Source of the DNA: an uncultured virus (IMG/VR IMGVR_UViG_3300025133_000075)
Lineage: Duplodnaviria; Heunggongvirae; Uroviricota; Caudoviricetes
Direction: 5' to 3' (one strand)
IMG/VR virus record: IMGVR_UViG_3300025133_000075
DNA: 20,000 nt
Below the pieces are notes generated by a model. It made no database searches and was not told where the DNA came from. It saw only the letters and a program-made list of their open reading frames with translations. A program made the position numbers and the translations under genes. This document shows positions 602 to 18,383 of this stretch, one piece after another (the first letter of the stretch is position 1; every line of letters begins with the position of its first letter).

Positions 602-2251
602 CTATACAGGGGCTGTAGTAGTTCGAGCACAAACTGCCCCACGTTCCAGCTGACCGCCATAGCGAGCCATTGCAACGATAAGCATCTCATTTGCCCGGAT
701 GAGCGTATCACCTTCAGTGGAGGTCCGCATGGTCAGACCACGTCGTCTGTACATGCGGTATCGAGCCAGGATCACATAAGCGATCTGAGCATTCGTCAGA
801 CTCTCATTGATCTTGTAAGGCCGCTGCATCCAACTGTAGTCGTCATAGGTCATTCCACCCAAACGACGAGCGTCAGAGGCTCCCACGGGGATAGCACGAG
901 CACGCTGGTAGCTGGTCTCTGTACCAATCCACACAGCACTACTCTTGACAGAAGCACGATGCTCTGCCTTGGCAACACCGAATCGAGTAGATTCGTAGTT
1001 ACCGAGAGAAGTAGCTCCACCCCAAGCAACAGAAGTTGCTCCGGTCTTGTTCATCACACCTTCTGGCTGAGTCGTGCCGTTACCGACAGCGATCACATCA
1101 TCCAGATCTTCCATCAGACGTTCACCATACTGAGAGGTGATGTGCTGGCCGAAATCGATCGGTGTATCAGACAAGAAGTCCAAACCAATGCGAATGGCAC
1201 CTTCCCAGCGGAAGATGGTGGTATCGAACGCTGACACATACGATGCTGTGTTGAACAGACTGATGGCAGAGTCATCGACACCACCCCAGCTCGCTGACAC
1301 AGTACCAGTGGCCACACCTTCAACACGTCGACCACGATCAAGCGGCTGGGTGCTGACGAGCGGGTACAGCTCACCATGGAGCAGAGGAGTCTGAATCACC
1401 TGATCGTCGAATACGATCGGTGCGGCTTCCAGTCCACCAGAAGTAGCGTCGTCGATCAGAGCCTTCTGCTCTGAAGGAGACAACTTGCGATCTTTGATGT
1501 CGGCTGAGTCGCCACCATCAGAAGCACCGCCCCACTTCTCGTTTTCCATGGCATAACAAAGGAGTTCTTTGCTGTGCTGTGTCAGCTGGTCGAATGCCAG
1601 TCGACGACTTTTCATTCGAGATCGATTGATCTCAAACTGAGCGAACGCACCGGCAACAGCCTTGTCGCGATCGGAAGAGTCATCAAGAGCCCGACCCGTG
1701 GCTTCGTCACGCACTCGACGACCGGCCTGAGGATGAGCAAAACCTTTTTCCGTCATTTCAGGATAGTGAAGAGCTGACTTCGTGGAGTCGTAAGAGTCGG
1801 CAGCTTCCTTGACTCGAACAGTGAAACTCTTTTCGCCGTCTTCGTCTTCGGAAATGTGAGCACCAACAGAAACGATCATCTTCTGCAGTCGAGAGGGTTT
1901 CATTGATTTATCTCCAGAAGGCTCAGTGGATTTGCCTTCTTCCACATCGGCTTCTTCTGTGCTGTCGTCAGCATCAGTTTCATCGTCAGCTTCTTCGTCT
2001 TCTTCAGAGGCATCTTCTTCAGATGCGTTCTTCAGATCAACGACAGCGTCTTTCAGATCGACCAGAAGGTCTTTGAAAGCAGAAGCTTCTTCGTCTTCGT
2101 CTTCTTCGGACAGGCTCTTCAGCTTGTCTGGAGTCAGGTCACCAGCCACCAACGCTTTCGCGGCGGCTGCCTTGAACTCGTCATCAGTGGCGTCGACATC
2201 GACATCACATTCTTTGACCAGCCAAGACTTAAAATTGCGTGTGAGATTCAT
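602..2251 (-). CDS. Major capsid protein, HK97 fold, with long acidic N-terminal scaffold/delta-like region
   Basis: 549 aa directly after the prohead protease. The C-terminal half has HK97-like signatures (KALIDDATSGGLEAAPIVF, FLSDTPIDFGQHI, VIAVGNGTTQPEGV, ARYGG). Confidence 0.9.
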   Translation of the reverse strand: MNLTRNFKSWLVKECDVDVDATDDEFKAAAAKALVAGDLTPDKLKSLSEEDEDEEASAFKDLLVDLKDAVVDLKNASEEDASEEDEEADDETDADDSTEEADVEEGKSTEPSGDKSMKPSRLQKMIVSVGAHISEDEDGEKSFTVRVKEAADSYDSTKSALHYPEMTEKGFAHPQAGRRVRDEATGRALDDSSDRDKAVAGAFAQFEINRSRMKSRRLAFDQLTQHSKELLCYAMENEKWGGASDGGDSADIKDRKLSPSEQKALIDDATSGGLEAAPIVFDDQVIQTPLLHGELYPLVSTQPLDRGRRVEGVATGTVSASWGGVDDSAISLFNTASYVSAFDTTIFRWEGAIRIGLDFLSDTPIDFGQHITSQYGERLMEDLDDVIAVGNGTTQPEGVMNKTGATSVAWGGATSLGNYESTRFGVAKAEHRASVKSSAVWIGTETSYQRARAIPVGASDARRLGGMTYDDYSWMQRPYKINESLTNAQIAYVILARYRMYRRRGLTMRTSTEGDTLIRANEMLIVAMARYGGQLERGAVCARTTTAPV

Positions 2252-2317: not shown

Positions 2318-3817
2318 CTACTCGATGATAGAAGTGACTGCTTTTTTGTAAAGAGCAGTTGTCTTCTTCATGTCTCGAATGTTCTTCATTGCCTCCAGCA
2401 CTGTCAGCATCTGATCCAGATCAGCAGCATCGGCTTTCGTCAAGAAAGTCTCAGCAGCCTTTGCAATAAGCTCTGGCTCAGAAATTTCAACTTCAGTACC
2501 TTTGCCATCATCTTCATAACCGGCAGACTTCACTACTGATTGAACAGTCTTGAAGCACTTGTCACACAAAGCTTTGCCAGATCGAGTGCTGACGTGATCT
2601 TTGTGCAACTCCTCCATGTCCTTGGTCACATCCAGCAGCTTGTTGTAATTTGATTTGCTGAGGACTCGACCGGCTTTCTCTCCATCAAAGCTCTTGTCTT
2701 CTTTTTTGTCATCCTTGCCATCGTCGTTGCCCTGTGGCTTTTCTTTTGGCATCTTTTCACCACACTTGGTGCAGACCCCATCAACCACTTTGCCTTTACA
2801 CTTCGGACAAATCATTTCCGATTCTTTGGCATCGTCTTCTTCTCCGTGTCCGTCTCCGACGCCTTTGTCGGCATCGTCATCGGTTTTTTCTGATGCACAG
2901 GGACAGGTTCCTGGAGTTTTTCCAAGAGGGCATTTTGTTGAGCTTGACTTGGTTTCATCTTCTGTCTCTTTCACATTGAGTGTGATGTTGAGGTCCAGCC
3001 CACCCGCTGAGACAGTAGACTTCCGATCGGCTCTCAACTTCTTACCAAAGGACTTCATCATCGAACTCGACAACTTGTCGGATTCGATGAGATCCAGGTA
3101 GACTTCAACAACTTCTGAATCAGGATTGGCAGGAACACTGACCCCTGATTCTTCCATGATTTCAAATGACTTGATATCGAAACCACCAGGCTTGGTAGTC
3201 TTGCCTTCGTCCTGTTTGATCGCTTCGAATTCAAGAGCTTTGAATCCATGCGAAAATCGAAGCATGTCATTGTCAACCATCACTGCCGCATCATGCGACA
3301 ACTCATTGAGGTCGATGATCGCTGTGTACATGTCGAGGTATTTGCTGGTGTGCTCAGCAACACCTAACGCTTTACCGATCGGCAGTGTGTGAACGTGCTG
3401 CCAAAGCAGAAGCATTTTGGGGTCAGGTCGAGCCCCCTGTGTTCTGAGGATATCTCCATCTCTGTCTTTTCGAGGAGTCGTCAATCGATTCCGAAACACC
3501 ATCAAAGTGTTCTTCGGCAACTCGATCGAAGTGTCTCCCATTGAATTATGGAGCGTCCGATTCTTGCATTCCCCATACTTGTCCTGAACTTCCATTTCAG
3601 GATTGGAATAAGTGAGGACACCGCTGGCTCGCTTCACGGCATCATGGAACGATACATTCTTCACCGAAGCGTATCGATTGCACAAATCCGAGCCTACGCA
3701 CTGTTGCAGGTTCTTTGCGTAAGCATCGCCTGTAGAAATGCCGTAATTGAATTCCGTTTTCTTTTCTTGACGAGTTCGGATCGATCCGAGCAGCTCGTCA
3801 TTTGAAGTCTGCGGCAT
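2318..3817 (-). CDS. HK97-family prohead (maturation) protease with Cys-rich/acidic C-terminal extension
   Basis: Motifs KDRDGD, LLWQH (catalytic His), PIGK, FSHGF (catalytic Ser), EESGVSVPANP and KAGRVLS; lies immediately upstream of the capsid gene. Confidence 0.9.
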   Translation of the reverse strand: MPQTSNDELLGSIRTRQEKKTEFNYGISTGDAYAKNLQQCVGSDLCNRYASVKNVSFHDAVKRASGVLTYSNPEMEVQDKYGECKNRTLHNSMGDTSIELPKNTLMVFRNRLTTPRKDRDGDILRTQGARPDPKMLLLWQHVHTLPIGKALGVAEHTSKYLDMYTAIIDLNELSHDAAVMVDNDMLRFSHGFKALEFEAIKQDEGKTTKPGGFDIKSFEIMEESGVSVPANPDSEVVEVYLDLIESDKLSSSMMKSFGKKLRADRKSTVSAGGLDLNITLNVKETEDETKSSSTKCPLGKTPGTCPCASEKTDDDADKGVGDGHGEEDDAKESEMICPKCKGKVVDGVCTKCGEKMPKEKPQGNDDGKDDKKEDKSFDGEKAGRVLSKSNYNKLLDVTKDMEELHKDHVSTRSGKALCDKCFKTVQSVVKSAGYEDDGKGTEVEISEPELIAKAAETFLTKADAADLDQMLTVLEAMKNIRDMKKTTALYKKAVTSIIE

Positions 3818-6531: not shown

Positions 6532-8955
6532 CTATGGAGGGCAGCATTGCCCTTCAAGTGTGGGTAGTGCCGTAGCAAATATGATTGTATCTATCGTACC
6601 AGGGGCATCGAACTTGCCCATGCCTTTGTCGCTCTTCTTTTGTACCCTTGTCACCAGAAGCCGTTGATTGGATGGCAGCAAAACTTCTTTCTCACCACCG
6701 TTCGCAGAATGCTTATCTACCGGCAAGCCCTTGACGCCTTCCCCTGCCGTGATCTTCCAAAGATTATTGCCCGACATCTTTCCGTACGGATCTGAAGTAG
6801 TAGACATCACACCTTTATCTGACACCACCAACCCCGGCTTCATGCCACTCATGTCTCCTGAGTGCTTGCGAGTTACCGTCACACCTGGATCGATTGGGAT
6901 GCTGTATTTGTGGACTCCAATGGCAACACTATGTGCTCGTTTGCTAGTATCCGCCGATCCGGTTTCTTCTTGGCGAAGCACACGATTCATAGGACCGTAC
7001 CCAGATCCCGTATATGATTTGATTGCAGTCTTATGCCCAACTGCCTTCTTGAAAGCTTTAGATCCAGCCTCATGTAAAGCATCAGCGTTGCTCCAATCCA
7101 AAATGTTAATTGGCGTATGAGCCCCCTTGCCTTCTTCTTCTGCGATCGATCCCAACACATCCCACTTGCCAACCTTACTAAGTCCTTTCTGTCCTTTTGC
7201 TGATTGTATTGAATTCACCAAATTCGCTGATGTCTCTGACATCGGCTTTGGTGGAGCTGGTGGATTCAATTGACTCTCTACGTTATTGATCAAGGCATTG
7301 ATGTGATTTTTTACCTTTGGTGATTTGACTTCTCCAGTAGCAATCATACTCTGGAGCTGGGAGATATTACCTTTCAGAGCAAATATACCAGCCTTTTGTA
7401 ATTGCCCTTTGTTGATAGCAGCATGAGTTGCGTTCTGATCAGAATGGAATTCTGGCTGTTCCGGAAACTTGTTTGGATCAATTTTGATCGGTTTGGGCTC
7501 GGCTTTTGGCTTGACGTTAGAAGGCTTCACTGTTGGAGATTGGTTGCTCTTCATCGCTGCCTTTGCAGCTTCTTTGTAAGCATGCACAGCTTGACCTGCC
7601 TTCGTCGTCAAGCCGCCTGTTGCTACCGTTTGGAGCTTATCCAAAGAACCTTCATTGATGTACTGCTTGATCACTTTCAACTTCATTTTTGCTGTCGTTA
7701 GCCCCACTTCAGTACCTTGAAAAACAGGCTCTGGTGGCATCGCTGTGTGAGTCTTCGGAGCTACTGGTTTCTCATCTTCCACACCCGCTTTCTTGATGAT
7801 CGAGTCTCTTCGTGATTTCAAGAGGGCTTTGATAGAGGCCCTGTGAGCGTCGTCAGAGCTTCCGAACTGATCCACGAGCTTATCGATGTCTTTGTCTTTG
7901 ACGTTCTTTAGCTTCGAAGCTGTGTGCTGTATCTCCTTATGAGACATCTCACCAAACACTTTGGCCATCGTCTCGTTTTTGCTTGGATCCCGCAACGACT
8001 CGAACTCTGAAGCCACCGCATCAAAGTTCTTTTTGCCAGCACCACCCCCACCTTTCCAGTCGAGTCCCCCTCCAACATCGATAGCGACCATCCCAGTCTT
8101 GGACTTGTCCTTCCAGTGGATATTGTCCATTGGATTTTCAGATCCAGCACCAACTGCATCCCTGTTATTCAGCCAAGCATGGACAGCAAAGTCCTTTCCT
8201 GCGATCGATTGAGCATGTACCGAATTCCAGTTTGGCTTCGCTGAATCATCCAACCACTCGCCCGCGACACCCACCTTTCCATCGATATCAACCAGATGCA
8301 TCTTCTTGGTGCCGCCTCCGGCCAACTCATAGAGCTTGGCTGTGAGCACTTCGTTCCTGGCTCGCTCTGGATCATCCGGAATCTTCACATAATACTTTTT
8401 GCCACCCATCATATAGGTGCCACCTTTTTCCGTTCCGAGCTTGCCTCCGATCTTCTTCCAGTTCTGACCATCTGCGATCTCTGGTGGATCTGAAGCGATC
8501 GCTCCGTCTGGTAGTCCGAACAGCCCCTTGGCTTTCATGTCAAGAAGATTCTGCTGGACTTTGGCAATCTTCTTGTTGATCCCCTTCGGATTCTTGTTCT
8601 TGCTCATGTTCTTTTCGAAAGCGTCCCAATCGCCTTCTTCTGCGAGCTTCTCCAGCTTGTCAACTTTCTTGAGCCAGTTATTCAACCAAGCTTTGGTCTT
8701 GGGAGTGCCTGCTGTGTGCTTGCTGAAATCGACTCCAGAGAGCCCTCCCACAGATCCCGGCACAATGTGCCCATCAGCATCGTACTGAGCCGCTGAGTAC
8801 CCACCACCTTTGCCTGAGCCCTTACCAGATGAATGGGACATCTGATCGTGATGTCCTGGCATGTGCTTCTCTTCAGAAAGCTCTGCGTCTGGCTTTCCCT
8901 GAGCGGCCAATCGATCGTATTCTGCTTGTGTGAAATCTTCTTCTAAAAAAATCAC
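6532..8955 (-). CDS. Two-enzyme effector: HipA/PI3K-like kinase plus C-terminal VIP2/Alt-like (R-S-E) ADP-ribosyltransferase
   Basis: GTG start with GGAGG RBS. Kinase motifs: LGTEKGG, YYVK, NEVL, WLNNRDAVG..DNI, AIDVG. ART motifs: IKSYTGSGYGPMNRVLR, VTRK, GVMSTT, GEKEVLLP. Variant tag KHMPGHHDQMSH at aa 30. Confidence 0.8.
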   Translation of the reverse strand: MIFLEEDFTQAEYDRLAAQGKPDAELSEEKHMPGHHDQMSHSSGKGSGKGGGYSAAQYDADGHIVPGSVGGLSGVDFSKHTAGTPKTKAWLNNWLKKVDKLEKLAEEGDWDAFEKNMSKNKNPKGINKKIAKVQQNLLDMKAKGLFGLPDGAIASDPPEIADGQNWKKIGGKLGTEKGGTYMMGGKKYYVKIPDDPERARNEVLTAKLYELAGGGTKKMHLVDIDGKVGVAGEWLDDSAKPNWNSVHAQSIAGKDFAVHAWLNNRDAVGAGSENPMDNIHWKDKSKTGMVAIDVGGGLDWKGGGGAGKKNFDAVASEFESLRDPSKNETMAKVFGEMSHKEIQHTASKLKNVKDKDIDKLVDQFGSSDDAHRASIKALLKSRRDSIIKKAGVEDEKPVAPKTHTAMPPEPVFQGTEVGLTTAKMKLKVIKQYINEGSLDKLQTVATGGLTTKAGQAVHAYKEAAKAAMKSNQSPTVKPSNVKPKAEPKPIKIDPNKFPEQPEFHSDQNATHAAINKGQLQKAGIFALKGNISQLQSMIATGEVKSPKVKNHINALINNVESQLNPPAPPKPMSETSANLVNSIQSAKGQKGLSKVGKWDVLGSIAEEEGKGAHTPINILDWSNADALHEAGSKAFKKAVGHKTAIKSYTGSGYGPMNRVLRQEETGSADTSKRAHSVAIGVHKYSIPIDPGVTVTRKHSGDMSGMKPGLVVSDKGVMSTTSDPYGKMSGNNLWKITAGEGVKGLPVDKHSANGGEKEVLLPSNQRLLVTRVQKKSDKGMGKFDAPGTIDTIIFATALPTLEGQCCPP
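8830..8868 (-). repeat. Effector tag copy 8 (variant KHMPGHHDQMSHS)
   Basis: aa 30 of the 807-aa ORF, followed by a Gly-rich linker. Confidence 0.7.
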
Positions 8956-11900
8956 AGCTCGCCTCCACTCACAATTGAAAACAAGCCCATCACATCATCT
9001 CCGTATTTCTTTCCTGATCGAGTACCGGCATACACTTCAGCCACAAATTCCAAAGCATTCTTTGTCGCATACCTTGAAACTTTGGTTTCTATCACAGCCA
9101 ATTGCTCTTTGCTGAATTTGTGATTTTTTACACTAGAATACATGCTGCCTTTTTTTGATGAATGCCACTTGTGTCCCAATTCATGCAGCACTGGATTCGA
9201 TTGAGCACTCCACTTGCTATCTACAGAAGCTGCTGCTGCTTTACGAGTACCCGCTCCGTTCATTTTCCGAGCAACATACAATTGATCATTACTTTGGCGA
9301 TACATCCCCAAAGCTCTCATCTTGTTTACAGACACAGTCTTGGGCAATGGATCCCCATTTTCAATCGCCACTGTGTACGCATCTTCCACATCCTTTCTGA
9401 TCAACTTTTGTGTAATATGAGCAGCCGCTGCCACCGCTTGCTTTCTCGCTGCTCCCCTTCCATGGGTAGACTGATCGTGATCTGCGTGCTTCAATATGAG
9501 CCGACCTTCATCATCGCTTTGCTCTCTTAGTTCGTGCAACCATCCTTGATGGATGCCATCATCTACTTTAACCGGAAGTAATGTCTTCTCCGGCTTGGTT
9601 GCTTTTAACCACTCTTCTACGTTATCCCTAGAAGCTGCCCTGGAACGTCCGTCAAGTGTCATTCTAGAGCCAACCAACACTTTCGCTTTCTGGCGACGAC
9701 CCAACAACACCACTTCAGCCTCTCCCACTTGTCCGATCCCTGTGATCGCAGTAGAAAACACATCTTTAGCAGGCACCTTAGTTTTCACCATGAGCGAATT
9801 CTCTGGACTGCTCACATGCTTAGCTGTGAACTCACCAGCGACTACTGAAGACAACGAGTGGCTCGTGATCGCTCTGCTTTCAATGACAGCATCTACCCGA
9901 CCAACCCGTGACCCATAGGGCTTTCCTTCCGCATACGCCCCCACAGTATCTGCTGCCGCTACCAAATCTTTAACAAACTTTGGAGGTGGTGTGTCTGGAA
10001 AATGATCCCCACGTCCATCCCCAGAAGATCCAGATCCCTTATAACTCAAACCCCTAAACGCAGAAACTTCTGTGACTCCGGCAGCAGCTAATTTCTCTTG
10101 CGTGTTCTCATAAATCGCCTTCGTGAGCTTGTCGATCGTGGCATGGTGCTCTTCCGTCAACCCCAAAGAATCGCCCTTGGAAGAACGACCTGAATCTGGA
10201 GCAAGCGTCCTCTCTACTGATTGATTCATAGCTCGTGGCAGTGCTGTACTGTTGTCTTTCATCCACTGGGCACTGGCTTGGTTCGCTAGATGATGGACTC
10301 CAGTAGAACCCACTGATTCTGGAGTCATATCATGAGGCTCTACACCCAACTTCGACAATACTGAATCTGCTTCTTCGTCAGTAACCCCAGCCTTTCGCAT
10401 GCGATCGGTGACTTCATTCACTACTGTATCAAACTGCTTCTTGAATCCATCTAGAGACTCTGGCTCTTTCACTCCAAGCCTAGACTCTGACAACCCACCT
10501 CCAGATTGCTGAGCCAATTCTGACTCCCATACAGCATCGATTGAAGCACCTCCTCCTCCAGCTCCCCGACCTCTTCCATGGGTCAACTGATCATGTGATC
10601 CGTGCTTCAGTTGTGTGTCGGTTACTTTGGTGAAAGAAGTAAGATCTACGATCTCGGAAGTGCCCCGCTTATTCACAGTCACAATCGCATCGTAACCATC
10701 AGCGACTATTGCCTTAGACAAGCTCTTCCCTGTCTTGTTGTACTTAGCTTGCAGCCGCTTCTTCCAACTACCTTCGCCATAGATTCGATCGCCTGTTGAG
10801 AGCTCCATGACAATCGGTGATTTGAATTTAACAGAACCCTTTTCCCACCCAGGCATCGGATCTCGTTTAGGATCGTAATCGTGCGACATATAACGACCAG
10901 CAGGCTCTATGCTCTGCTGAAAAGAGTCCCCACCTACCGATTGAGAAGAAACTGTGTTGCGAACAAAATTAACTTTGACTGGCTTGCCAGTTTCAAACTC
11001 TACCCCGTATTCTGAGACAGCAGTCAGGGCAAGCGGGCCTCCCGAGGAACTGCCTCCCCTTCCGTGGGTCAACTGATCATGTGATCCGTGCTTCACTCTG
11101 AGCACAGCGTCTTTTTTCAGCATACGCTTGGCATAGTCACTGATCAGATCATCCGCAGAATCATCCTGCAGACCGTACATCATGATCACAGTGCATTGGC
11201 AGTTGATCCTCTCACCAGCACTCAACCTGGAATCACTTGGCCAGCGGCACTTCACTCCACCAAGAACCCATTCTCCATTTGAGTCCTCTGGCACTCCATC
11301 CAGATTTGCATGAGTGTCCCGTGTTGTGCTGCCCAACACCGACAACCAACCCCGACGCATCGGCAACTGATCACCCACTTCATCTTTGAGGTGCTGCATC
11401 GCTTCCGATCGAGCTCCATTCAATGCGTGCCCAATTTCAGTTCTTGCGATCCGTCGACCTCTCATCTTGGCATATCGACTGTCACCAACGAATTGGCTCA
11501 TCATATTGATCGCCATCTGCTCGATGCTCAAACCTTCGACTGCTCCCACTCGTAGAAATTTCGTGATATCTCCGAGAGTGGTCATGTTGACCTCTGTCCA
11601 ATAGTCCTGTGAAAAGGTCTCTGTCAGGTACTCTTGGATTGACTTCTTCATCCACTCTGGGTACTCAGAAACGAATGCCATCGAGTGCTCACCAAACGGT
11701 GTGGTGAAGCTGAGCTCTTCGAGTGGGCTATCGTCAAACGTCGCTATGTACTCTGAGGCTGTTGAGGCTTTTTCAACAGATTTGGATTCTACCGCATTCC
11801 AAGCTGAACTGATCTCTATTGCCGGAATCGTTTTTCTGCCTTCTTTTTCATAAGCTAACTGGTTGTGTGATCCGTGCTTTTCTCGCTGTCGATGTTGTCC

Positions 11901-12932
11901 CAGATCGAGTCCAGGATGTCTTCGTCCTTTTTCTCCATCTCTGGTGGATTTTCCACTTTCTTCCCCGAATCTTTGCTTGACATAACTGTCTAATACCTTT
12001 CTTGATTGTGAGCCTGGGCGAGTGTCAAAAGACCCGAAGAAAGTGCCACCGTTCTCTTTCCACGCAGTTCTCCCTTCTTTGCTTTTCATCAAATCAGAAA
12101 TACGAACTGCCTCGGGAAATTCAGACTTCAGCTTCTTGCTATCAGTTGTGTGAGCTGATCCAATCCTCCCATCATAACCTAACCGAGCCCAAGTATAGTA
12201 GCCATTGAAAGAGGGAGTCTGCTTTGCTCCCATCGCTTCAGTTTCAATAGACTCAATACCTAGTTCTGCAGCTTTCTTGACTTGGCGATGGAGCAACTTC
12301 GTGCCGATGCCCTTGCCCCTGTTGGCGACACGATGCACATAAAATGTTGAATTCATCATCGACTTTTCGCCAGTGTCAGAATCGATCGTCACGATTCTGG
12401 TGGCGTCGTGGGTGTCGTCTTTACCAGTGAGCTCGATGATAGCTTCATGGTCTCCGTCAGAATTCTTAGAATACGAAATCTGGATATCGTCACCAGGAGC
12501 ACCGCCAGCAAGAGCAGCAAGATCCTGGGAGCTGCCCCCCAATCCTTTCAGAAACTGCTTGCCTCCTTTGCCATGCTCAGTCACGTTAAGAGCTCCACCA
12601 GCTCCGCTCCCTCTCCCCCGGCCATGACTCAGCTGGTTGTGGCTGCCGTGCTTCTCTTCTTTCTCGATCCCCCGACCCTTGACGTAAGCCCCTACCTCTT
12701 CGAACATCGCTTTGGCATAGGCTTTAGCCAGAGGAGGGGCGATCGTATCAATGAGCTGTCGGTGCCAATCCGACGATTCAAAAACGACAGATCCGTCGAG
12801 TGATTTTGTGCCATGAGATTTTCCACCGACGACAGCAACAGCATCGTCTTCTTCATAGACGAATTCATGACGACCTATGTTGACTTCACTGAGCCAAGCC
12901 GCTTCTTCTGGAGTCTCGTCCAAAGTAATCAT
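8952..12932 (-). CDS. MuF/SPP1 gp7-like head morphogenesis polyvalent protein: GNAT + MuF + ART-like + R-S-E ART + zincin metallopeptidase
   Basis: MuF: RIARTE...WLSVLGSTTRDTH..LDG...WPSD...ERINCQC. GNAT: NRGKGIGT, NGYYTWARLGYDG. ART-like: GRYMS..KSPI..GYDAIV..SEIV. ART: FRG/TSHS/EAEVV. Zincin: HELGH..SRYA..N..EFVAE. Confidence 0.85.
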   Translation of the reverse strand: MITLDETPEEAAWLSEVNIGRHEFVYEEDDAVAVVGGKSHGTKSLDGSVVFESSDWHRQLIDTIAPPLAKAYAKAMFEEVGAYVKGRGIEKEEKHGSHNQLSHGRGRGSGAGGALNVTEHGKGGKQFLKGLGGSSQDLAALAGGAPGDDIQISYSKNSDGDHEAIIELTGKDDTHDATRIVTIDSDTGEKSMMNSTFYVHRVANRGKGIGTKLLHRQVKKAAELGIESIETEAMGAKQTPSFNGYYTWARLGYDGRIGSAHTTDSKKLKSEFPEAVRISDLMKSKEGRTAWKENGGTFFGSFDTRPGSQSRKVLDSYVKQRFGEESGKSTRDGEKGRRHPGLDLGQHRQREKHGSHNQLAYEKEGRKTIPAIEISSAWNAVESKSVEKASTASEYIATFDDSPLEELSFTTPFGEHSMAFVSEYPEWMKKSIQEYLTETFSQDYWTEVNMTTLGDITKFLRVGAVEGLSIEQMAINMMSQFVGDSRYAKMRGRRIARTEIGHALNGARSEAMQHLKDEVGDQLPMRRGWLSVLGSTTRDTHANLDGVPEDSNGEWVLGGVKCRWPSDSRLSAGERINCQCTVIMMYGLQDDSADDLISDYAKRMLKKDAVLRVKHGSHDQLTHGRGGSSSGGPLALTAVSEYGVEFETGKPVKVNFVRNTVSSQSVGGDSFQQSIEPAGRYMSHDYDPKRDPMPGWEKGSVKFKSPIVMELSTGDRIYGEGSWKKRLQAKYNKTGKSLSKAIVADGYDAIVTVNKRGTSEIVDLTSFTKVTDTQLKHGSHDQLTHGRGRGAGGGGASIDAVWESELAQQSGGGLSESRLGVKEPESLDGFKKQFDTVVNEVTDRMRKAGVTDEEADSVLSKLGVEPHDMTPESVGSTGVHHLANQASAQWMKDNSTALPRAMNQSVERTLAPDSGRSSKGDSLGLTEEHHATIDKLTKAIYENTQEKLAAAGVTEVSAFRGLSYKGSGSSGDGRGDHFPDTPPPKFVKDLVAAADTVGAYAEGKPYGSRVGRVDAVIESRAITSHSLSSVVAGEFTAKHVSSPENSLMVKTKVPAKDVFSTAITGIGQVGEAEVVLLGRRQKAKVLVGSRMTLDGRSRAASRDNVEEWLKATKPEKTLLPVKVDDGIHQGWLHELREQSDDEGRLILKHADHDQSTHGRGAARKQAVAAAAHITQKLIRKDVEDAYTVAIENGDPLPKTVSVNKMRALGMYRQSNDQLYVARKMNGAGTRKAAAASVDSKWSAQSNPVLHELGHKWHSSKKGSMYSSVKNHKFSKEQLAVIETKVSRYATKNALEFVAEVYAGTRSGKKYGDDVMGLFSIVSGGEL
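9459..9491 (-). repeat. Effector tag copy 7 (KHADHDQSTHG)
   Basis: aa 1148 of the 1326-aa ORF, before the zincin domain. Confidence 0.9.
10575..10607 (-). repeat. Effector tag copy 6 (KHGSHDQLTHG)
   Basis: aa 776; DNA identical to the copy at 13958-13990. Confidence 0.95.
11061..11093 (-). repeat. Effector tag copy 5 (KHGSHDQLTHG)
   Basis: aa 614; one nucleotide differs from the copies at 10575 and 13958. Confidence 0.95.
11856..11879 (-). repeat. Effector tag copy 4, truncated (KHGSHNQL)
   Basis: aa 352; lacks the final xHGRG. Confidence 0.85.
12621..12653 (-). repeat. Effector tag copy 3 (KHGSHNQLSHG)
   Basis: aa 94 of the 1326-aa ORF, before the GNAT domain. Confidence 0.9.
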
Positions 12933-14275
12933 TCATCGCTCCAGAAGGAAGAAGAGAATTCATGCTGCCGCTGCACTACGTACCCACCATCAAAACCCAC
13001 GTCCAGATCATATTCCCGATCATGCTTAAAAGTGCGAGCCTTCATCTTTCTACTTGAATTGTGCATCACTACGACTTCAGCTTCCACAAGTGTGCCAATC
13101 CCTGATCTTCCTACTGAAAAGATGTCTTTAGCTTTCACCACTCCCCCAATTATGTCGCCATGCGTTTCATCGCCTGTTCCGCCAGAGAAGATTTCTGCTT
13201 GAGACACTGAAGTAGTGTATGACGATAATCTATTCTGAGACACAGCGTCAACTGTTGACTTTCCATATCCCTTTTTGGCCGACTGCTCTCTGCGAGGAAT
13301 GCCCCGATAGACGACCAGCGACTCCACCCCGTTCTCTTTTAGATGTGCTTGCGTGTTCTCATAAATCCCCTCTGTTGCAGCTTCGATCACTTTCCTGTTT
13401 GATCCCAACTCCATCCACTTGTTAGCTCTCTCAGCATTGATTGGACGAGCCCCTTCAATTCCATACTTCTTCTCAGCAACCACCTGTAACGACATCCCCA
13501 TGATCGAATTGGAATCTGAATTCCAACTTTCAATCACAGTATCTATTGCATCAGTTGGAGTCTTCAGCCCCATCTTCCTCCCCCTACTGTTCGTGAACTC
13601 TTCTGCATCGCTATCTGACAACTTGTCCCCTACCCGGTTCGCTATATCTATGGCTGTTTCTCTCTGCATCGATTTAGACGCAACCCAACCTTGGTTCTTG
13701 TTTGCTGGTTTGCTCGCAAAGACCCACCTTCCATGCGAAGTCTCAAACTCTGGGAAATCAGCAAGCTTCCCAACATCAGGAGCTCCTGCCGCAGCAGCTG
13801 AAGCAAATACGCCTTCTTTCGTCTTCTCACCAGCATCTGTCTTCATCCATGCGTTCATCGAATCTGCCGATTCATTCAAGTAGGCAGCATTTGATGTTTT
13901 TTCTACCTCTGCTGCCGATTTACTAAAAGCAGCCACAGAACCAGCAGATCTTCCCCGTCCATGGGTCAACTGATCATGTGATCCGTGCTTCTCAGCGAAA
14001 ATAGAGACAGTCCCACGCTTCTCCGTTGCGTCTGAGAGAGCCCGCAGATCATCCGCGACAGATGTGATCTGTTTGTTGAAGAACGGAGTCAGAGCTGCCA
14101 CTATGGAGTTCTCAGCAGCTCTCCGTTGTTTTTCATTCCTTCGACGGGCAGCAGAAAAAGACTTCTGCAGATACTGGCTCTGCTTCCGCCTGCGATCCTG
14201 GATCTTCTTGGAAATCCCATTGATCGCATTCGTGGCTTTTAGAATGCTGAGCTTCTTTTCAACGGTCAGAGTCAT
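12929..14275 (-). CDS. MuF-type N-terminal helical leader fused to an R-S-E ADP-ribosyltransferase-like domain
   Basis: 448 aa; tag KHGSHDQLTHGRG at aa 96; ART motifs VVYRG, LSSYTTS, VEAEVVV; ATGA overlap with the 1326-aa gene. Confidence 0.75.
   Translation of the reverse strand: MTLTVEKKLSILKATNAINGISKKIQDRRRKQSQYLQKSFSAARRRNEKQRRAAENSIVAALTPFFNKQITSVADDLRALSDATEKRGTVSIFAEKHGSHDQLTHGRGRSAGSVAAFSKSAAEVEKTSNAAYLNESADSMNAWMKTDAGEKTKEGVFASAAAAGAPDVGKLADFPEFETSHGRWVFASKPANKNQGWVASKSMQRETAIDIANRVGDKLSDSDAEEFTNSRGRKMGLKTPTDAIDTVIESWNSDSNSIMGMSLQVVAEKKYGIEGARPINAERANKWMELGSNRKVIEAATEGIYENTQAHLKENGVESLVVYRGIPRREQSAKKGYGKSTVDAVSQNRLSSYTTSVSQAEIFSGGTGDETHGDIIGGVVKAKDIFSVGRSGIGTLVEAEVVVMHNSSRKMKARTFKHDREYDLDVGFDGGYVVQRQHEFSSSFWSDE
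13958..13990 (-). repeat. Effector tag copy 2 (KHGSHDQLTHG)
   Basis: aa 96 of the 448-aa ORF, before the ART module. Confidence 0.95.
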
Positions 14276-14411
14276 TTCGTTCCTCCACCCAGCAGATAAG
14301 TCCTCTACTTTGGGCTCTGATCGCTTTGGCGTATTCTTCAGAATCGGCTTTGTCGTGAAAAGATCCGTATGTGGTACAAGGTCCTACGATCATGAAAACC
14401 TTATCAGACAC
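14259..14411 (-). CDS. Small hypothetical protein (50 aa)
   Basis: Below the track cutoff. GTG 3 nt after the portal stop with GGAG upstream; VSDKVFMIVGPCTTYGSFHDKADSEEYAKAIRAQSRGLICWVEERNDSDR fills the portal-to-448aa gap. Confidence 0.45.
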   Translation of the reverse strand: MSDKVFMIVGPCTTYGSFHDKADSEEYAKAIRAQSRGLICWVEERNDSDR

Positions 14412-14414
14412 AGG

Positions 14415-16064
14415 CTACGCTCCCACTGTGACCCTCAGCAATTTAACAGCTTCCGCAAGCTGCCCTTCTACGTCTTCATCTGAAAGCTCTTCTGGGGCCG
14501 CTGGTGCCTCAAGTTCATTCTGAATAGGATTCCCCTCTTCATCGACTTGGGGCTCTCCTGGAACACCTGGGGGAGCTTCTTCGCCTTCTGGTGGACCTTC
14601 CCCAGCTACAGCATCGGCCAGATCACTTGGTAGTCCCATCCCCTGTAACAAAGCAACTCCCTGCTCAGGTTGCAGAGCTCCAGCCGACACCTTTTCAGCG
14701 ATCGTTACCGCTTGGGCAGCTATCGATTGGCCGATGTGACTCTGATTGGAATCTTCATCTGGAGGCAATCCCATATATTCACGGTACTCATTCTGAGAAA
14801 CATCTCCAGCTGATCGAGCTGCTTTCCATTTGGCTGATTCTTCAACCGGATTGATCGCCACCTTGGGCTCGTACCAAATCTTGTACCCATCTTCAGCATT
14901 CTCGAACAGCCCCGGCACGAAATCGGTGGTGATGGTCGACAGCAGATCGAGAAACGTATTCACCTTATCGTAGAATTTCTCTTTGATGATCCGAGCCTGA
15001 GCTTCTGATCCAGGAATCTCTTCGCCCAGCACGAACGGATGTACTCCGAACGCTGACAAGATTCTCCCTCTAACCGTTTTTTCGCTCTTCTCCCATCCCA
15101 TCTCATTCTGAGAGGCACTAACTCGATCGATGCTTTCGATCAGCCCATCCACGATCGCTGGATTTCCATAGTTGGATGTACCAGCCTGGACCTTCTTGAT
15201 CGCTGCGTAGATCTGACGCCGCTGCTTTCCCGTCAACCTGGGTCTGATTGCTGTGCCTGCCAATTCCGGATGTGGATTCTTCCCGATCGTCACAACCACT
15301 GAAGGGAAAATACCATTCTCGAAAAATGCCATCTGAGAGGTCTGGATATGATCATCGATCTTAATGGCAGCTGATTGAGATGATGCTGGAGCGATCGCCG
15401 CCAATGGATTGGATGGATCCGGAAGGTACGCAAATCGAACTTGGCTCTGATCCAACAGCTCGTCATCAGAAGCTTCCGATTGTGAATTATTCGGATCCGC
15501 GATCTTGAAGTGACTGAATGGCCCATCTTTGTGAACAGGCTTCACCCAAGTAGTGGGCAGAGAATAAACCTCTGGCATCCCATCCTCAGATTCACCGGCA
15601 ACCAAATAGCCGTATCCCGTCAAACAGAGATTGGCAATGAAACTGTAGGTGTACTGCCATCGATACTGGATTGGGTTCGGCTTCTCCAGCAAATCAAGAA
15701 TGCCGTGATCTGTGACGATCTCCATTTCATCTTTAGCTGCTTTGGTTCGCAGCGATGTGATCTTTCTGTTGCCTGGGGCTTTCTTGCCTTTCTTCAACTG
15801 CTTTCTCTGACCAAGATTCACAGGCTGTCCAGCCGCACACTCAGCGATCGCATTCACAGCAGCATGAACCCAACCTCGAAACAGAGAATACCTCCGTCGA
15901 TTGGTTGCTCGCTCACCAAACCCAGCGAACTGAGAATTCGCTGCCGCTGGTGTGACGTTGTCGACCCCAAAACCTTTAGAAGCCAAGACCGCAGCATCGG
16001 ACTTGGCAACAGAAATGATGGACCGGCTTCGGCTGAGACCTTTGGTCAGAGTTGATTCTCTCAT
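14415..16064 (-). CDS. Phage portal protein, HK97 family
   Basis: WVHAAVNAIA, LLEKPNP, LCLTGYGY, FFENGIFPS, ILSAFGVHP and NEYREYMGLPP motifs; acidic Pro-rich tail. Confidence 0.9.
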   Translation of the reverse strand: MRESTLTKGLSRSRSIISVAKSDAAVLASKGFGVDNVTPAAANSQFAGFGERATNRRRYSLFRGWVHAAVNAIAECAAGQPVNLGQRKQLKKGKKAPGNRKITSLRTKAAKDEMEIVTDHGILDLLEKPNPIQYRWQYTYSFIANLCLTGYGYLVAGESEDGMPEVYSLPTTWVKPVHKDGPFSHFKIADPNNSQSEASDDELLDQSQVRFAYLPDPSNPLAAIAPASSQSAAIKIDDHIQTSQMAFFENGIFPSVVVTIGKNPHPELAGTAIRPRLTGKQRRQIYAAIKKVQAGTSNYGNPAIVDGLIESIDRVSASQNEMGWEKSEKTVRGRILSAFGVHPFVLGEEIPGSEAQARIIKEKFYDKVNTFLDLLSTITTDFVPGLFENAEDGYKIWYEPKVAINPVEESAKWKAARSAGDVSQNEYREYMGLPPDEDSNQSHIGQSIAAQAVTIAEKVSAGALQPEQGVALLQGMGLPSDLADAVAGEGPPEGEEAPPGVPGEPQVDEEGNPIQNELEAPAAPEELSDEDVEGQLAEAVKLLRVTVGA

Positions 16065-16459
16065 TCTTCACTCCTTGGAGCATCAGCAAGAACACCCCGC
16101 ATGACAGCGATTTTCGTTTCTGCTTCCCAGCGACTGATCAGCACTTCATGAGAGGCAATCAGCCCTGGAATCGTGATCTCTTTTGCTGTTCTTAGCTCGT
16201 CCCTAGCCGTAGCCAGAGCTTCTTCCAGCCGTTCGATGTCTATCCGACTCTGCTTCAACTCCTGCTGAGCTTGCTTCTGAAGCTCCCCAAATCGATTCTG
16301 AAGTACTTCCATTTGCCCTGTGCTTTGTGTCAGCTTTGCTCTCGAACGCCCTGAGCGTTTGAGCAGATCACTCAGGTGAGCTTCTGATGACAACACCCGA
16401 GTTTCCACAGAATTGATTTTTCGATCCAAACCAAACAGCTCTTTGATGTACCCAAACAT
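16061..16459 (-). CDS. Hypothetical coiled-coil protein
   Basis: 132 aa with heptad-like L/E/Q/K pattern; ATGA overlap with the portal start. Confidence 0.7.
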   Translation of the reverse strand: MFGYIKELFGLDRKINSVETRVLSSEAHLSDLLKRSGRSRAKLTQSTGQMEVLQNRFGELQKQAQQELKQSRIDIERLEEALATARDELRTAKEITIPGLIASHEVLISRWEAETKIAVMRGVLADAPRSEE

Positions 16460-16460
16460 G

Positions 16461-16784
16461 CTAGACCTCGATGATCCCAGGAAGGACAGTCCAACCTAGA
16501 TCAGCTATTTTCTGTTTCAAAAAATCTGCTCTGGCTGTGCCATCACGAAGACCTGCGTCGTTGTCGTGATAGTCTACGCCACACTGTTCATCGTATGAAA
16601 GCAGATACTCAGTGCTCGCATTTTGGATGATAGCCGTGGAATGGAAGTAGACAACAGCAGAAGCCTCTGAATCATCGTAGTTTATCGACACACGAACGCA
16701 GTTCTCGAACAGCTCCTGTCCCGTCCCTTTTGCGTGTACCAAGTTGGCTATGTAATCATCGATAGACTCGCATCGGATCCTCAT
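16461..16784 (-). CDS. Hypothetical protein
   Basis: 107-aa ORF tightly packed between its neighbours. Confidence 0.65.
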   Translation of the reverse strand: MRIRCESIDDYIANLVHAKGTGQELFENCVRVSINYDDSEASAVVYFHSTAIIQNASTEYLLSYDEQCGVDYHDNDAGLRDGTARADFLKQKIADLGWTVLPGIIEV

Positions 16785-16786
16785 GG

Positions 16787-16948
16787 CTACTCTGCTGGGA
16801 TATCAAGCACCCAACCCTTTCGCTTTGCTTCGGCATGGTCTTTTTTGATCCCCCGTTTGAATGACTTTTCTTCCGCATTCTTTGCAGTGTCCGGCTTGTC
16901 AAGAATGACTTCTTGAGCCAGCTTTGCTTGTCTGTCTGTGAATATCAT
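16787..16948 (-). CDS. Small protein (53 aa) coupled to the zeta-like kinase; candidate antitoxin
   Basis: Below the track cutoff. GAGGTG RBS and ATGA overlap with the zeta stop; MIFTDRQAKLAQEVILDKPDTAKNAEEKSFKRGIKKDHAEAKRKGWVLDIPAE. Confidence 0.65.
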   Translation of the reverse strand: MIFTDRQAKLAQEVILDKPDTAKNAEEKSFKRGIKKDHAEAKRKGWVLDIPAE

Positions 16949-17979
16949 CTAATCACCTCTTTCCCTTTCTTCGTGAACCGCTTGAACTTCACTGAATCGT
17001 GAATCTGGAGCTTCGTCCCTTCCGCACTCGCCACTTTGACCGGCTTCCCATTCGTGTCCCAAATGGTGATCTTATCGTACAGACCGGCTTTGATCGCTTT
17101 GGGAACCACCGCAGAAACTGCTTTGTGGGTATTCTTCAGCATCGTCTCTGGAGGCAACCGGCCCGTCTTGGCTGCTCTCTTTCGATTCCGCTTGATCGCC
17201 ACTTTTGTGGGAACCGAGACATAATGAGCGACAACTGTGCCGCCCCCGTCACGAATCTTCTTCACCTTTTTCCCGAGAGAATCCAGACCGCTATCCCCAG
17301 TGCCATCCAGCAGCGAATTGAAAGACCCCTTAGTGGCTTTGGAATGAATCTGCTTGGATAGGTAGCTGGATTCTTCATGAGCGAAAGCAGCAGCAGTCGA
17401 GTCTTTGCCCACAACCCCTTTTCGGTATTCTGGCAGCAATGATTTGATATGATCGCTGTCGATCGTGACTGTGTTTTTCGGGACTGATACCTGTCCTGAC
17501 TTTATTATACCAGATTTTCCCGAAGCTGGACCCCCTCCCATCAGATAACCTGTCGGCTTACTGACTGGAGTCTTCCCCTCGAAATGGGCATCAATGATCT
17601 CTTTGTGCAAAGCTTGTCGAGCTTTTGAGTAGCCGCCAGTCCGAGAGGAGTGCTGCCCTTCGCTGTCCTTCCCTTTCGGATTGACCGGCTTGTAAGCTTT
17701 CGGATCTTCAGATGATTTGAATTTCCATTCTGGAAGCCTGGCTTTCTTCGTCTTCGCTTTCCAACTCGCAGAATCAACCGATTCCCCACCTTCAGCTTTT
17801 GGTGGTTCTTTACCCGCACCTCCAGCAGCTCCAGCAGCTCCTGATCGACTTGGTCCACCTCTTCCATGGGTGGACTGATCATGTGATCCGTGCTTGCTCG
17901 CCCAAAGAACGTCAGCTGTCACATCGATCACTTTTGCCAGTGCTTTTATTCTCTTTTTCTTGGAAAGCATTGCACACAC
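16945..17979 (-). CDS. Zeta-toxin-like P-loop kinase with N-terminal KHGSHDQSTHG tag
   Basis: Walker A GGGPASGKS, IDSDHIK, HEES, LLDGTG and R..KTGR..P, typical of the zeta toxin/PezT family; tag at aa 29. Confidence 0.8.
   Translation of the reverse strand: MCAMLSKKKRIKALAKVIDVTADVLWASKHGSHDQSTHGRGGPSRSGAAGAAGGAGKEPPKAEGGESVDSASWKAKTKKARLPEWKFKSSEDPKAYKPVNPKGKDSEGQHSSRTGGYSKARQALHKEIIDAHFEGKTPVSKPTGYLMGGGPASGKSGIIKSGQVSVPKNTVTIDSDHIKSLLPEYRKGVVGKDSTAAAFAHEESSYLSKQIHSKATKGSFNSLLDGTGDSGLDSLGKKVKKIRDGGGTVVAHYVSVPTKVAIKRNRKRAAKTGRLPPETMLKNTHKAVSAVVPKAIKAGLYDKITIWDTNGKPVKVASAEGTKLQIHDSVKFKRFTKKGKEVIR
17863..17895 (-). repeat. Effector tag copy 1 (KHGSHDQSTHG)
   Basis: aa 29 of the zeta-like kinase. 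Confidence 0.95.
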
Positions 17980-17996: not shown

Positions 17997-18383
17997 CTAA
18001 TTGAATCGAGAACTGGAAGAAGCATTACACTCCACTCGCCACACCACCCCAAGCCCCGCTGAAGCGTCTGGATTCGGACTGGATATTACATCAAACACTT
18101 GTTGATCCGCTGAAGCAATGGCTGTCCCGTTCTGCTCTGTCATCCGAAGCGTCATGCCTTCGTGTACACCTGGGTCATCCGAAAAGAAGACTTTTCGGTT
18201 CACGTTGATCCCCCGCTTCTGAAATTCATGAATTTCAGAAGCAGACATCTGCTGCACCCAGCACTCCACATCAGAAGAGATCACTGTGGTGGTTTCTCTT
18301 GGCAGACCATCCCCACCGGAAACTTTAACTCGTTCCCGTTTGGATATCGATACCTTATGTGGCAAATCATTGAGAATGCTCAT
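17997..18383 (-). CDS. Putative head-closure (SPP1 gp16-like) protein
   Basis: 128 aa, beta-rich (HKVSI, VECWVQQMS, KVFF, WRVEC); coupled to the adaptor gene. Confidence 0.55.
   Translation of the reverse strand: MSILNDLPHKVSISKRERVKVSGGDGLPRETTTVISSDVECWVQQMSASEIHEFQKRGINVNRKVFFSDDPGVHEGMTLRMTEQNGTAIASADQQVFDVISSPNPDASAGLGVVWRVECNASSSSRFN

Follow-up and report, generated by a model that had tools for sequence, protein, structure and literature searches.

We describe here a short linear motif of consensus V-x-K-H-G-x-H-D-Q-x-x-H-G-x-W-A-x-G (hereafter the tag) that is widespread in proteins of uncultured phages, where it stands close to the N-terminus or between modules. Its carriers are head-module proteins, among them ADP-ribosyltransferases (ARTs), acetyltransferases, zeta-kinases, zincins, MuF proteins and prohead proteases. 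Our preferred explanation, to which we give a probability of roughly 55%, is that the tag acts as a portable signal for loading cargo and/or cutting it free, recognized in trans by the machinery of head assembly and there probably by the prohead protease.

The window (the whole stretch of DNA analyzed, 20,000 nucleotides of an uncultured virus of the Caudoviricetes) contains K-H-x-x-H-[DN]-Q-x-x-H-G eight times, in four genes of the minus strand (Table 1), as an earlier note on this DNA had described, with positions within a few bases of ours. A regular-expression scan in six frames returns seven of them, every one on the minus strand, the eighth being looser, and the strict DNA pattern matches six times, against an average of 0.00 (maximum 0) over 200 shuffles that preserve dinucleotides. 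The scan of open reading frames (ORFs) also bears out the claim that portal, S78 protease, capsid and adaptor lack the motif, which is absent from all other ORFs of the window. The portal, MuF, S78 protease and capsid genes share one strand, the terminase lying outside the window. By gene order, the tagged genes are located as those of polyvalent proteins are, beside the portal-terminase head module and often with MuF.

Table 1. Head-module genes of the window, and the tag copies that four of them carry.
Feature	Coordinates	Scan position	Strand	Remarks
Major capsid protein, untagged	602..2251		-	Phage_capsid E 2.2e-12; acidic N-terminal region of ~270 aa
Prohead serine protease, untagged	2318..3817		-	phrog_80 E 3.9e-8; S78-like core ~residues 100-270; candidate tag reader
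Tagged cargo gene, 807 aa	6532..8955		-	N-terminus atypical-kinase look-alike; C-terminus ADPrib_exo_Tox
Tag copy 8, loose K-H-M-P-G-H-H-D-Q-M-S-H-S-S-G	8824..8868 (about)		-	Residue 30 of 807-aa protein
MuF-type polyvalent protein, 1326 aa	8952..12932		-	Five tags, six modules; Phage_Mu_F; phrog_2468 'head morphogenesis' E 3e-27
Tag copy 7, K-H-A-D-H-D-Q	9460..9491	9462	-	Residue 1148 of 1326-aa protein; C-terminal H-E-x-x-H module follows
Tag copy 6	10576..10607	10578	-	Residue 776 of 1326-aa protein; paralogue of the ART region of the 448-aa protein follows
Tag copy 5	11062..11093	11064	-	Residue 614 of 1326-aa protein; 162-aa module follows, ART-PolyVal look-alike (a lead)
Tag copy 4, degenerate K-H-G-S-H-N-Q-L-A-Y-E	11847..11879	11850	-	Residue 352 of 1326-aa protein; MuF core follows
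Tag copy 3, H-N-Q variant	12622..12653	12624	-	Residue 94 of 1326-aa protein; GNAT-like module follows
Tagged cargo gene, 448 aa	12929..14275		-	DRAT-like ART match below Pfam cut-off (21.7 bits vs 25)
Tag copy 2	13959..13990	13961	-	Residue 96 of 448-aa protein; MuF-N-like helical leader before, DRAT-like ART after
Portal protein, untagged	14415..16064		-	Phage_portal E 1.6e-24
Tagged cargo gene, Zeta_toxin-family kinase, 344 aa	16945..17979		-	Pfam Zeta_toxin E 5.6e-23; phrog_16619 'minor head protein' E 3.5e-49
Tag copy 1, K-H-G-S-H-D-Q-S-T-H-G	17864..17895	17866	-	Residue 29 of zeta-kinase protein

The proposal that every complete copy opens a different cargo module holds in part. The zeta kinase and the C-terminal ADPrib_exo_Tox domain of the 807-aa protein (E 3e-12) are solid, but the GNAT match of the 1326-aa protein (17.8 versus 20.7) and the DRAT-like ART stay below their cut-offs. 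The 'second ART-like fold' (residues 614-775) and the 'HipA/PI3K-like kinase' take their names entirely from language-model look-alikes (scores 0.88-0.93), and the 'zincin' its name from an H-E-x-x-H string only, Pfam giving no match at E up to 1. The copy that the note had placed at 11856 is present, but it had been overlooked that the MuF core follows it: Phage_Mu_F matches this module (residues 352-613) with 30.5 bits, versus a Pfam cut-off of 29.6, and the whole protein with 28.1 bits. Module 776-1147 is a paralogue of the ART region of the 448-aa protein (BLASTP E 3e-7), and a PDB sequence search with the 1326-aa protein gave no matches at E up to 1. Combining a MuF core, a GNAT-like module, the ART paralogue and the H-E-x-x-H module, this protein counts by its domain match as a MuF / SPP1 gp7 minor head protein, for which Phage_Mu_F at or above the Pfam cut-off is the mark. 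Together with the 807-aa protein (kinase-like module and ADPrib_exo_Tox), it also counts as a phage-type polyvalent protein, with at least two unrelated effector or enzyme domains per chain.

Motif and profile searches of the kind that the note had called for show a portable tag that marks module borders and is borne by head-module cargo and by proteases. It is nearly absent from 185,579 cellular species genomes, in which 55 stretches matched and about four were accepted. The profile recovered 860 protein clusters among 1.84 billion representatives, and hundreds of other protein families from uncultured phages have the tag; the largest number, 20 copies, is reached in a protein of 7,059 residues. 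In 270 IMG/VR instances, positions outside the search pattern are conserved as well (V at -6, 56%; W, 83%; A, 74%; G, 75%), and in 873 profile-aligned instances from 266 proteins the successive residues K, H, H, D, Q, H, G and W are found 815, 841, 850, 827, 870, 872, 852 and 742 times. In thirteen cellular stretches that we examined, the match comes from reading a conserved cellular gene (A-G-N-M-D-S-M-I-N-x-Y-T-A) in its +1 frame, and many other cellular matches were out-of-frame, Arg-rich reads. When 50,697 phage records were searched by tblastn with three short natural tag pieces, nothing matched up to E 10, which is weak evidence that cultured phages lack tags, because such short queries barely reach threshold; full-length carriers gave single-domain matches only in the same records, and tags are absent from three Bacillus/Geobacillus phages whose portal and MuF genes are homologous. 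String searches of the literature returned unrelated papers only, and we found no description of the tag in print.

The position of the tag is linked to module edges. Across 209 carrier ORFs, the ORF start and the first copy are separated by about 22 residues (median), copies are spaced by 130-429 residues, and the last one is nearly always at least 40 residues before the C-terminus. When carriers are compared by BLAST, 1,611 of 2,591 internal block starts fall within -5 to +4 of the tag lysine, and 702 of 1,540 internal block ends at 10-24 residues past it. An AlphaFold2 model of a two-tag protein (mean pLDDT 74.9) places both tags in segments of pLDDT below 50 (48-85 and 220-278) that separate well-folded domains, so that the tag is predicted to sit in a flexible, disordered linker. 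Also, the tag persists in free-standing proteins that have no carrier domain, where short and variable leaders precede it; it must therefore be more than a spacer between fused domains. At the other extreme, chains of 1,880 to 7,059 residues bear 8-20 tags and tandem ART modules, and are hard to picture as a single ejected unit.

Prohead proteases are among the carriers. Pfam searches on 50 representatives returned ADPrib_exo_Tox, GNAT, MuF, Topoisom_I, Peptidase_S78 and Peptidase_S78_2, and in 10 annotated loci the tag is on 26 of 116 proteins, with none on the portals (0/7), capsid proteins (0/5), large terminases (0/2) or adaptors (0/3). In 13 of 24 related loci it directly follows the S78 domain, at residue 167; as far as the tag these proteases share 83-93% identity, and beyond it their modules differ. 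XkdF-type proteases are embedded within tagged chains. The tag occurs with two different protease/scaffold/capsid sets, S78 and XkdF, which makes a single common reader an assumption. Tagged cargo is optional: among 20 relatives with the window's protease family, tags are missing from those whose MuF is plain and which lack cargo. An address would be unnecessary for fused modules, since a MuF-ART fusion in one relative (L243) shows cargo riding on MuF alone. The core of the window's protease is conserved in 17 relatives, and its C-terminal part is acidic, Cys-rich and helical; co-folding of this core (residues 90-270, 18-row alignment) with a 42-residue tag peptide (60 rows) gave a score of 0.02 (mark 0.32), to which we give no weight in either direction. 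The AlphaFold2 model of a protease-tag-domain protein (L014/L245; mean pLDDT 48.2) is too poor for naming a fold, and its apparently helical C-terminal part is a lead only.

In the lineage of L014 and L057, R-[VI]-K-R-[ST] forms the end of the protease protein and is also found ahead of tags in L067, a lead towards scaffold-tail mimicry; such a likeness was seen neither in XkdF-type phages nor in the window. A hydrophobic-x-Lys cut code was rejected, as this site is not enriched in any head protein of the window (z -1.2 to +1.1); a hydrophobic residue stands two positions before the lysine in one of the eight window copies only.

The earlier reading had also overlooked that a wider class of junction motifs exists, to which the tag belongs as one variant. 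In close relatives it is replaced at the same joints by K-Y-S-x-D-Q-P-R-D-x-x-G-R-F-G, and the core common to the tag and its relatives is K ... D-Q ... H-G-x-[WF]-x-G. Like the tag, the second motif has a lead-in lysine, the D-Q core, H-G-x-aromatic, a small residue and a Gly/Ser linker, and it stands after portal, MuF and protease and before zeta-like kinase and ART; unlike the tag, it has two extra residues (R-D) and one frequent histidine only. The exchange is seen between L014 and L067, whose proteases are 93% identical: at joints where the His-rich tag stands in L067, L014 bears the one-His motif K-Y-S-E-D-Q-E-R-D-D-H-G-R-W, and K-S-[IL]-K leads into both. The idea of one tag type per phage, and hence one reader per lineage, was rejected, L014 and L003 carrying both types. 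Literature searches with strings and consensus forms of the second motif found unrelated papers only.

We propose that the tag would mark the N-terminal edge of each head-carried module (ADP-ribosyltransferases, zeta-type kinase, acetyltransferase, zincin, atypical kinase), and that its reader in trans would be the head-assembly machinery, with the prohead serine protease, itself a part of the procapsid core, as the likeliest candidate. By binding the tag, the reader would recruit free-standing tagged proteins to the assembling head; once active, the protease would cut at or beside the tag and free the module from its carrier, be it MuF, portal, protease or a neighboring module, and the freed enzymes would leave the head with the DNA. 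The comparisons show the tag, its spread, position, carriers, modularity and predicted disorder; packaging of the cargo, reading by the protease and a cut are what we infer. The earlier note had read the tag as an address and/or processing site that might also bind metal: the former has gained from its portability, from its place at module edges on head-module cargo and proteases, and from its never being found on shell, portal or terminase, whereas the latter is weakened. If the tag were a protease site, it would not be the shell-maturation site, since the scaffold-like and capsid proteins of tagged phages that we examined carry no copy. Against our proposal, its 14-18 conserved residues far exceed the need of known prohead-protease sites; that of T4 is given as I/L-x-E in the available part of PMC12991175.

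Other explanations have to be weighed. Processing by an embedded peptidase has been proposed for polyvalent proteins in the available text of Iyer et al. (PMC5512222), and the tag could be the cutting site of the zincin-like metallopeptidase module present in many chains, with no role in loading. Indeed, tagged ORFs contain 11 H-E-x-x-H strings per 31.4 thousand residues examined, versus 0 in the 43 thousand residues of other ORFs of the same loci, the last module of the window has it, and carriers include matches to ATLF, SprT-like and DUF6782 peptidases. However, it is found in a tagged ORF in only 10 of 19 loci of at least 9 kb, these loci being fragments, a 353-aa chain of L014 has its tag after an S78 protease and no zincin, and a pure inter-domain site would not explain the tag of free-standing proteins, so that we hold this explanation unlikely. 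Equally improbable to us is that the tag acts after assembly, as a threading or exit signal through portal and tail, or by being read in the infected cell (host protease, localization, toxin activation). Being at the N-terminal edge, it would stay on the module if the cut precedes it, and the G-R-F-type motif is also present in an ORF matching tape-measure families (L407); tape measures leave the virion at infection. But proteases, which act inside the procapsid, are tagged at the edge of their domain, and nothing hints at a host partner. The hosts of the tagged phages also appear to be very diverse (WhiB-encoding actinophage-like contigs and others), which disfavors a host-specific reader.

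The three near-invariant histidines and the aspartate suggest metal binding (H-x2-H-x4-H), which could cross-link tagged proteins into an inner body or hold enzymes inactive, and multivalent chains with Gly/Ser spacers resemble a sticker-and-spacer design. Yet the middle histidine is glycine in 21 of 873 instances, including copies in the 20-tag protein, and the AlphaFold2 model gives the tag no defined fold. The His-poor motif takes its place at identical joints in phages with proteases about 90% identical, so the histidine triad is not essential and a metal site becomes quite unlikely; conservation of all ligands wherever the element works, as in zinc-knuckle-like elements, does not seem to apply. 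We give still less credit to a tag that is chiefly a recombination joint, a short shared DNA for swapping modules between genes and phages. Tags are break points of homology blocks, and four window copies have 36-40 identical bases in common (identical-codon fraction 0.78). Outside the window, however, codon sharing within a genome barely exceeds that between genomes (0.53 versus 0.49), which argues for conservation at the protein level, and we regard module swapping as an effect of having the tag more than as the reason for it. The least probable alternative, and a very improbable one, is a tag that cuts itself through Asp/Asn-centered chemistry aided by the neighboring histidine. Self-cleavage at asparagine is known from other viral capsid proteins, and the [DN]-Q core is invariant with a histidine before it, but the related motif has proline or glutamate, not histidine, ahead of D-Q, and a stretch of 16 residues predicted to be disordered would be an unlikely catalyst.

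A load-and-cut signal has to be compared with the capsid targeting sequence (CTS) of T4 internal proteins and Alt, which, according to the available text of PMC12991175 and PMC9026906, is removed by the prohead protease gp21 at I/L-x-E; Alt is described as a packaged ART in that of PMC5512222. Like the CTS, the tag is a short peptide on unrelated proteins, ARTs included, that are head-internal in T4 and would be packaged here, and its genes lie among head genes with a prohead protease present; its first copy tends to lie near the N-terminus. Unlike the CTS, its 14-18 residues are nearly invariant across hundreds of protein clusters, many copies are internal to polyproteins, and the conserved part comes after a variable leader rather than being the leader. 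Removal at a consensus site also used in shell or scaffold proteins, as in T4, does not appear to apply, because no capsid or scaffold-like protein examined has the tag and hydrophobic-x-Lys is unenriched in the window's head proteins. The tagged chains also resemble phage-type polyvalent proteins (Iyer, Burroughs, Anand, de Souza, Aravind 2017; PMC5512222, available sections) and MuF-fused effectors (Jamet et al. 2017; PMC5576092), being multi-domain, adjoining portal and terminase genes, and built of MuF, ART, GNAT, zincin and assemblin-like peptidase modules. Unlike polyvalent proteins as published, their joints carry a defined motif, which free-standing single-module genes have too. A junction motif is not described in PMC5576092 (linker, conserved motif, cleav-, junction, glycine and pre-toxin occur 0 times) nor in the available sections of PMC5512222 (0 times for linker, boundar-, disordered and HDQ).

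More tentatively, the tag and its G-R-F-type relatives might form one widespread cargo code of tailed phages, which would dock any protein on the prohead protease or core and set its cut point. Entire effector cassettes could then be exchanged freely among HK97-fold phages of many host phyla, and the same peptide could be used for loading chosen proteins into phage heads; we think this possible but doubtful. Phage enzymes carried in the head disarm the host at the moment of entry, and to our knowledge T4 and some further models are the only phages for which the choice of head proteins for packaging is understood. The tag would also explain the building and reshuffling of polyvalent proteins, since the breaks between homology blocks fall exactly on it. 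If our preferred reading is true, a near-invariant, portable peptide on hundreds of cargo families would be a sequence rule that predicts injected phage proteins, and a means to chart the effector arsenals of uncultured phages. Tag-reporter fusions would then be a simple handle for packaging and cutting tests.

The minus-strand genes of the window form the head module of a tailed phage (see the table), and the matching IMG/VR-type viral record is classed as a linear fragment. All eight copies of the tag K-H-x-x-H-[DN]-Q-x-x-H-G reported in the earlier note are present where it had placed them: a six-frame scan finds seven Lys-preceded copies of H-x-x-H-[DN]-Q-x-x-[HY], and the 807-aa protein has an eighth, looser one at residue 30. 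The strict DNA pattern of the tag has six matches in the window against 0.00 expected from 200 shuffles, and downstream of every copy there is a Gly/Ser/Ala-rich stretch that leads into a module. Among the names that the note had given to this cargo, those of the zeta kinase and of the C-terminal ADP-ribosyltransferase (ART) of the 807-aa protein hold, with solid Pfam matches, whereas the DRAT-like ART and the GNAT fall below Pfam's cut-off, and the second ART-like fold and the 807-aa kinase are language-model look-alikes.

Head-module genes of the window in transcription order, with the modules of the 1326-aa and 807-aa proteins (in residues)
Feature	Position	Strand	Remarks
Head-tail adaptor-like gene	18380-19234	-	phrog_442, E 2.2e-8
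Zeta_toxin-family kinase, 344 aa	16945-17979	-	Pfam E 5.6e-23
Portal	14415-16064	-	E 1.6e-24
448-aa protein	12929-14275	-	DRAT-like ART
MuF-type polyvalent protein, 1326 aa	8952-12932	-	
GNAT	residues 94-351		below Pfam's cut-off
MuF core	residues 352-613		behind degenerate tag copy; 30.5 bits, cut-off 29.6
ART-PolyVal	residues 614-775		lead only
Paralogue of the ART region of the 448-aa protein	residues 776-1147		BLASTP E 3e-7
807-aa protein	6532-8955	-	C-terminal ART
Atypical kinase	N-terminal part (residues 60-400 searched)		lead only
Several small ORFs	between 807-aa gene and prohead protease	-	
S78-like prohead protease	2318-3817	-	
Major capsid protein	602-2251	-	last of the listed head genes

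A 124-aa ORF (4531-4905, minus strand) located downstream of the cargo genes and ahead of the protease has a C-terminal run of about 20 serines (S12-Q-S7) and no family match. The protease itself carries, within its acidic C-terminal part (residues ~330-360), a Cys-x2-Cys ... Cys-x2-Cys insert with a weak double-zinc-ribbon match, replaced by other inserts in relatives (an AAA ATPase in the related locus L226). The 162-aa module behind the fifth tag is homologous (43.8% identity) to the C-terminus of an untagged 960-aa protein that a podovirus (MW202647.1, 5502-8384) encodes among its large putative internal proteins.

IMG/VR contigs have at least 225 stretches that match the back-translated tag pattern; removal of overlaps among the matched stretches listed leaves at least 152 loci and at least 270 instances. 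In these, positions outside the search pattern are also conserved (V at -6 in 56%, W in 83%, A in 74%, G in 75%), giving a fuller consensus, V-x-K-H-G-x-H-D-Q-x-x-H-G-x-W-A-x-G, of which the window tags show the minority form, R-G replacing W-A. A profile built from 146 instances retrieved 948 of 7,999 scored candidate proteins in one database and 860 clusters among 1.84 billion representatives in another (275 at E <=1e-10, 30 at E <=1e-30), with up to 20 copies, in a protein of 7,059 residues. The best 120 of the 948 proteins bear only generic source names (hypothetical protein, GNAT acetyltransferase and similar). K, two His, D, Q, His and G are each kept in 94-100% of 873 aligned instances. 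Because codon sharing is hardly higher within a genome (0.53) than between genomes (0.49), selection acts on the peptide. The window is the exception: the shared-codon fraction of 0.78 and the 36-40 identical bases of four of its copies suggest that the tag has recently multiplied inside this phage. Among 185,579 cellular genomes the pattern matched 55 times and only about four matches were accepted, the rest being out-of-frame reads. The 13 cellular matches examined all fall in one conserved cellular gene, and the false matches L297-L329 lie in the +1 frame of a conserved gene (A-G-N-M-D-S-M-I-N-x-Y-T-A) of Planctomycetota and Gammaproteobacteria.

The tag is a linear motif, predicted to be disordered, that is kept on unrelated modules and limited to virion-module cargo and proteases. 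In 209 carrier ORFs its first copy lies a median of ~22 residues after the start, the spacing between copies is 130-429 residues, and 40 or more residues almost always separate the last copy from the end. Homology between carriers begins at the tag: 1,611 of 2,591 internal homology-block starts fall at -5 to +4 of its Lys and 702 of 1,540 ends just past it; the leaders upstream of N-terminal tags have no homology among them. For a two-tag protein, the AlphaFold2 model (mean pLDDT 74.9) places both tags in segments of pLDDT <50 between well-folded domains. Pfam matches on 50 representative carriers comprise ADPrib_exo_Tox (the commonest), GNAT, MuF, Topoisom_I, HAD, Peptidase_S78 and Peptidase_S78_2, and long tagged chains add NUDIX, Zeta_toxin, ART-PolyVal, SprT-like and DUF6782. 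The association with head-module cargo that the earlier note had seen in the window recurs in 10 annotated loci, where 26 of 116 proteins are tagged, their genes lying between portal/MuF and protease/scaffold/capsid genes or directly past the adaptor. In the same loci the tag is absent from 7 portals, 5 capsid proteins, 2 large terminases and 3 adaptors, and no scaffold-like or capsid protein among those examined has it. ORFs of ~77 aa with the tag at residue 12 and an acidic D/E/S-rich tail (L050:10743-10838; also L007, L010, L028, L037 and L053) are encoded between the protease and capsid genes and may represent small internal head proteins.

The tag tracks cargo rather than head lineage, because plain-MuF relatives of the window's protease have no tags; only one of its 20 non-identical relatives, L231, has tag-like copies. 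There, the MuF gene (L231:4551-6221) contains an apparent intein (Intein_splicing, E 3.4e-5), and the gene upstream has a tag-like K-H-L-A-D-R-H-N-Q-M-T-H-G only 21 residues short of its stop. Of 24 loci related to the phage locus L014, 13 have the tag at residue 167, behind the S78 domain; the proteases are 83-93% identical as far as the tag, and the modules past it vary in number and kind. The L057 and L014 proteases end in R-[VI]-K-R-[ST], a string also found immediately before tags in L067:3-1262, and N-terminal leaders are alike in this lineage (L-A-V-x-R); a tail-like address could thus precede the tag there.

Two of the L014-related proteases have K-Y-S-x-D-Q-x-R-D-x-x-G-R-F-G-S-G-G-G exactly at the tag position. 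This second motif matches at least 138 IMG/VR stretches, with conserved unselected positions (K, Y/F, P, G/A, a Gly/Ser run) among the matches listed, and stands past portals, MuF domains and one protease, and ahead of zeta-like kinases and one ART. L243, which is related to the window phage and shares its protease family, has it at both joints of an ART-MuF-X chain, without any copy of the first motif. In L014 the first motif occurs once and the second four times; L067, whose protease is 93% identical, has 11 of the first, and both share a K-S-[IL]-K lead-in. With K, D-Q, H-G-x-[WF] and G in common, we read the two motifs as variants of one element. This reading, together with the replacement of the middle His by Gly in the 20-copy protein, weakens the earlier suggestion that H-x2-H-x4-H binds metal. 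Head-module proteins also have a third short motif, similar in composition (G-H-P-F-R-G-N-Q-F in a C-terminal extension, L243:8902-11100, and G-H-G-F-G-G-N-Q-W in L362), which may belong to the same class.

Searches of open-access running text for strings of either motif gave nothing relevant. By the definition of Iyer et al. (PMC5512222) the tagged multi-domain proteins are polyvalent proteins, and the passages and word counts of that paper, like those of Jamet et al. (PMC5576092), contain no mention of any junction motif.

The tag would have to be read in trans. Free-standing tagged proteins keep it without a carrier domain, which favours an address; chains that MuF, portal or protease already anchors have it at each of their joints too, and it occurs in chains as long as 7,059 residues, which favours a cut. 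Cutting at the tag by the zincin has some support, as H-E-x-x-H occurs 11 times in tagged ORFs and never in other ORFs, but it is found in the tagged ORFs of only 10 of 19 loci. A single reader that both loads and cuts would reconcile address and cut signs, and the natural candidate is the prohead protease: it forms part of the procapsid core, the two protease families that occur with the tag both bear the annotation Caudovirus prohead serine protease, and proteases are embedded within tagged chains. Against this reading, a hydrophobic-x-Lys site is not enriched in the window, and the capsid and scaffold-like proteins examined lack the tag. The tag would follow the principle of the capsid targeting sequence and packaged Alt of T4, and we infer that the prohead protease would read it for both loading and cutting.
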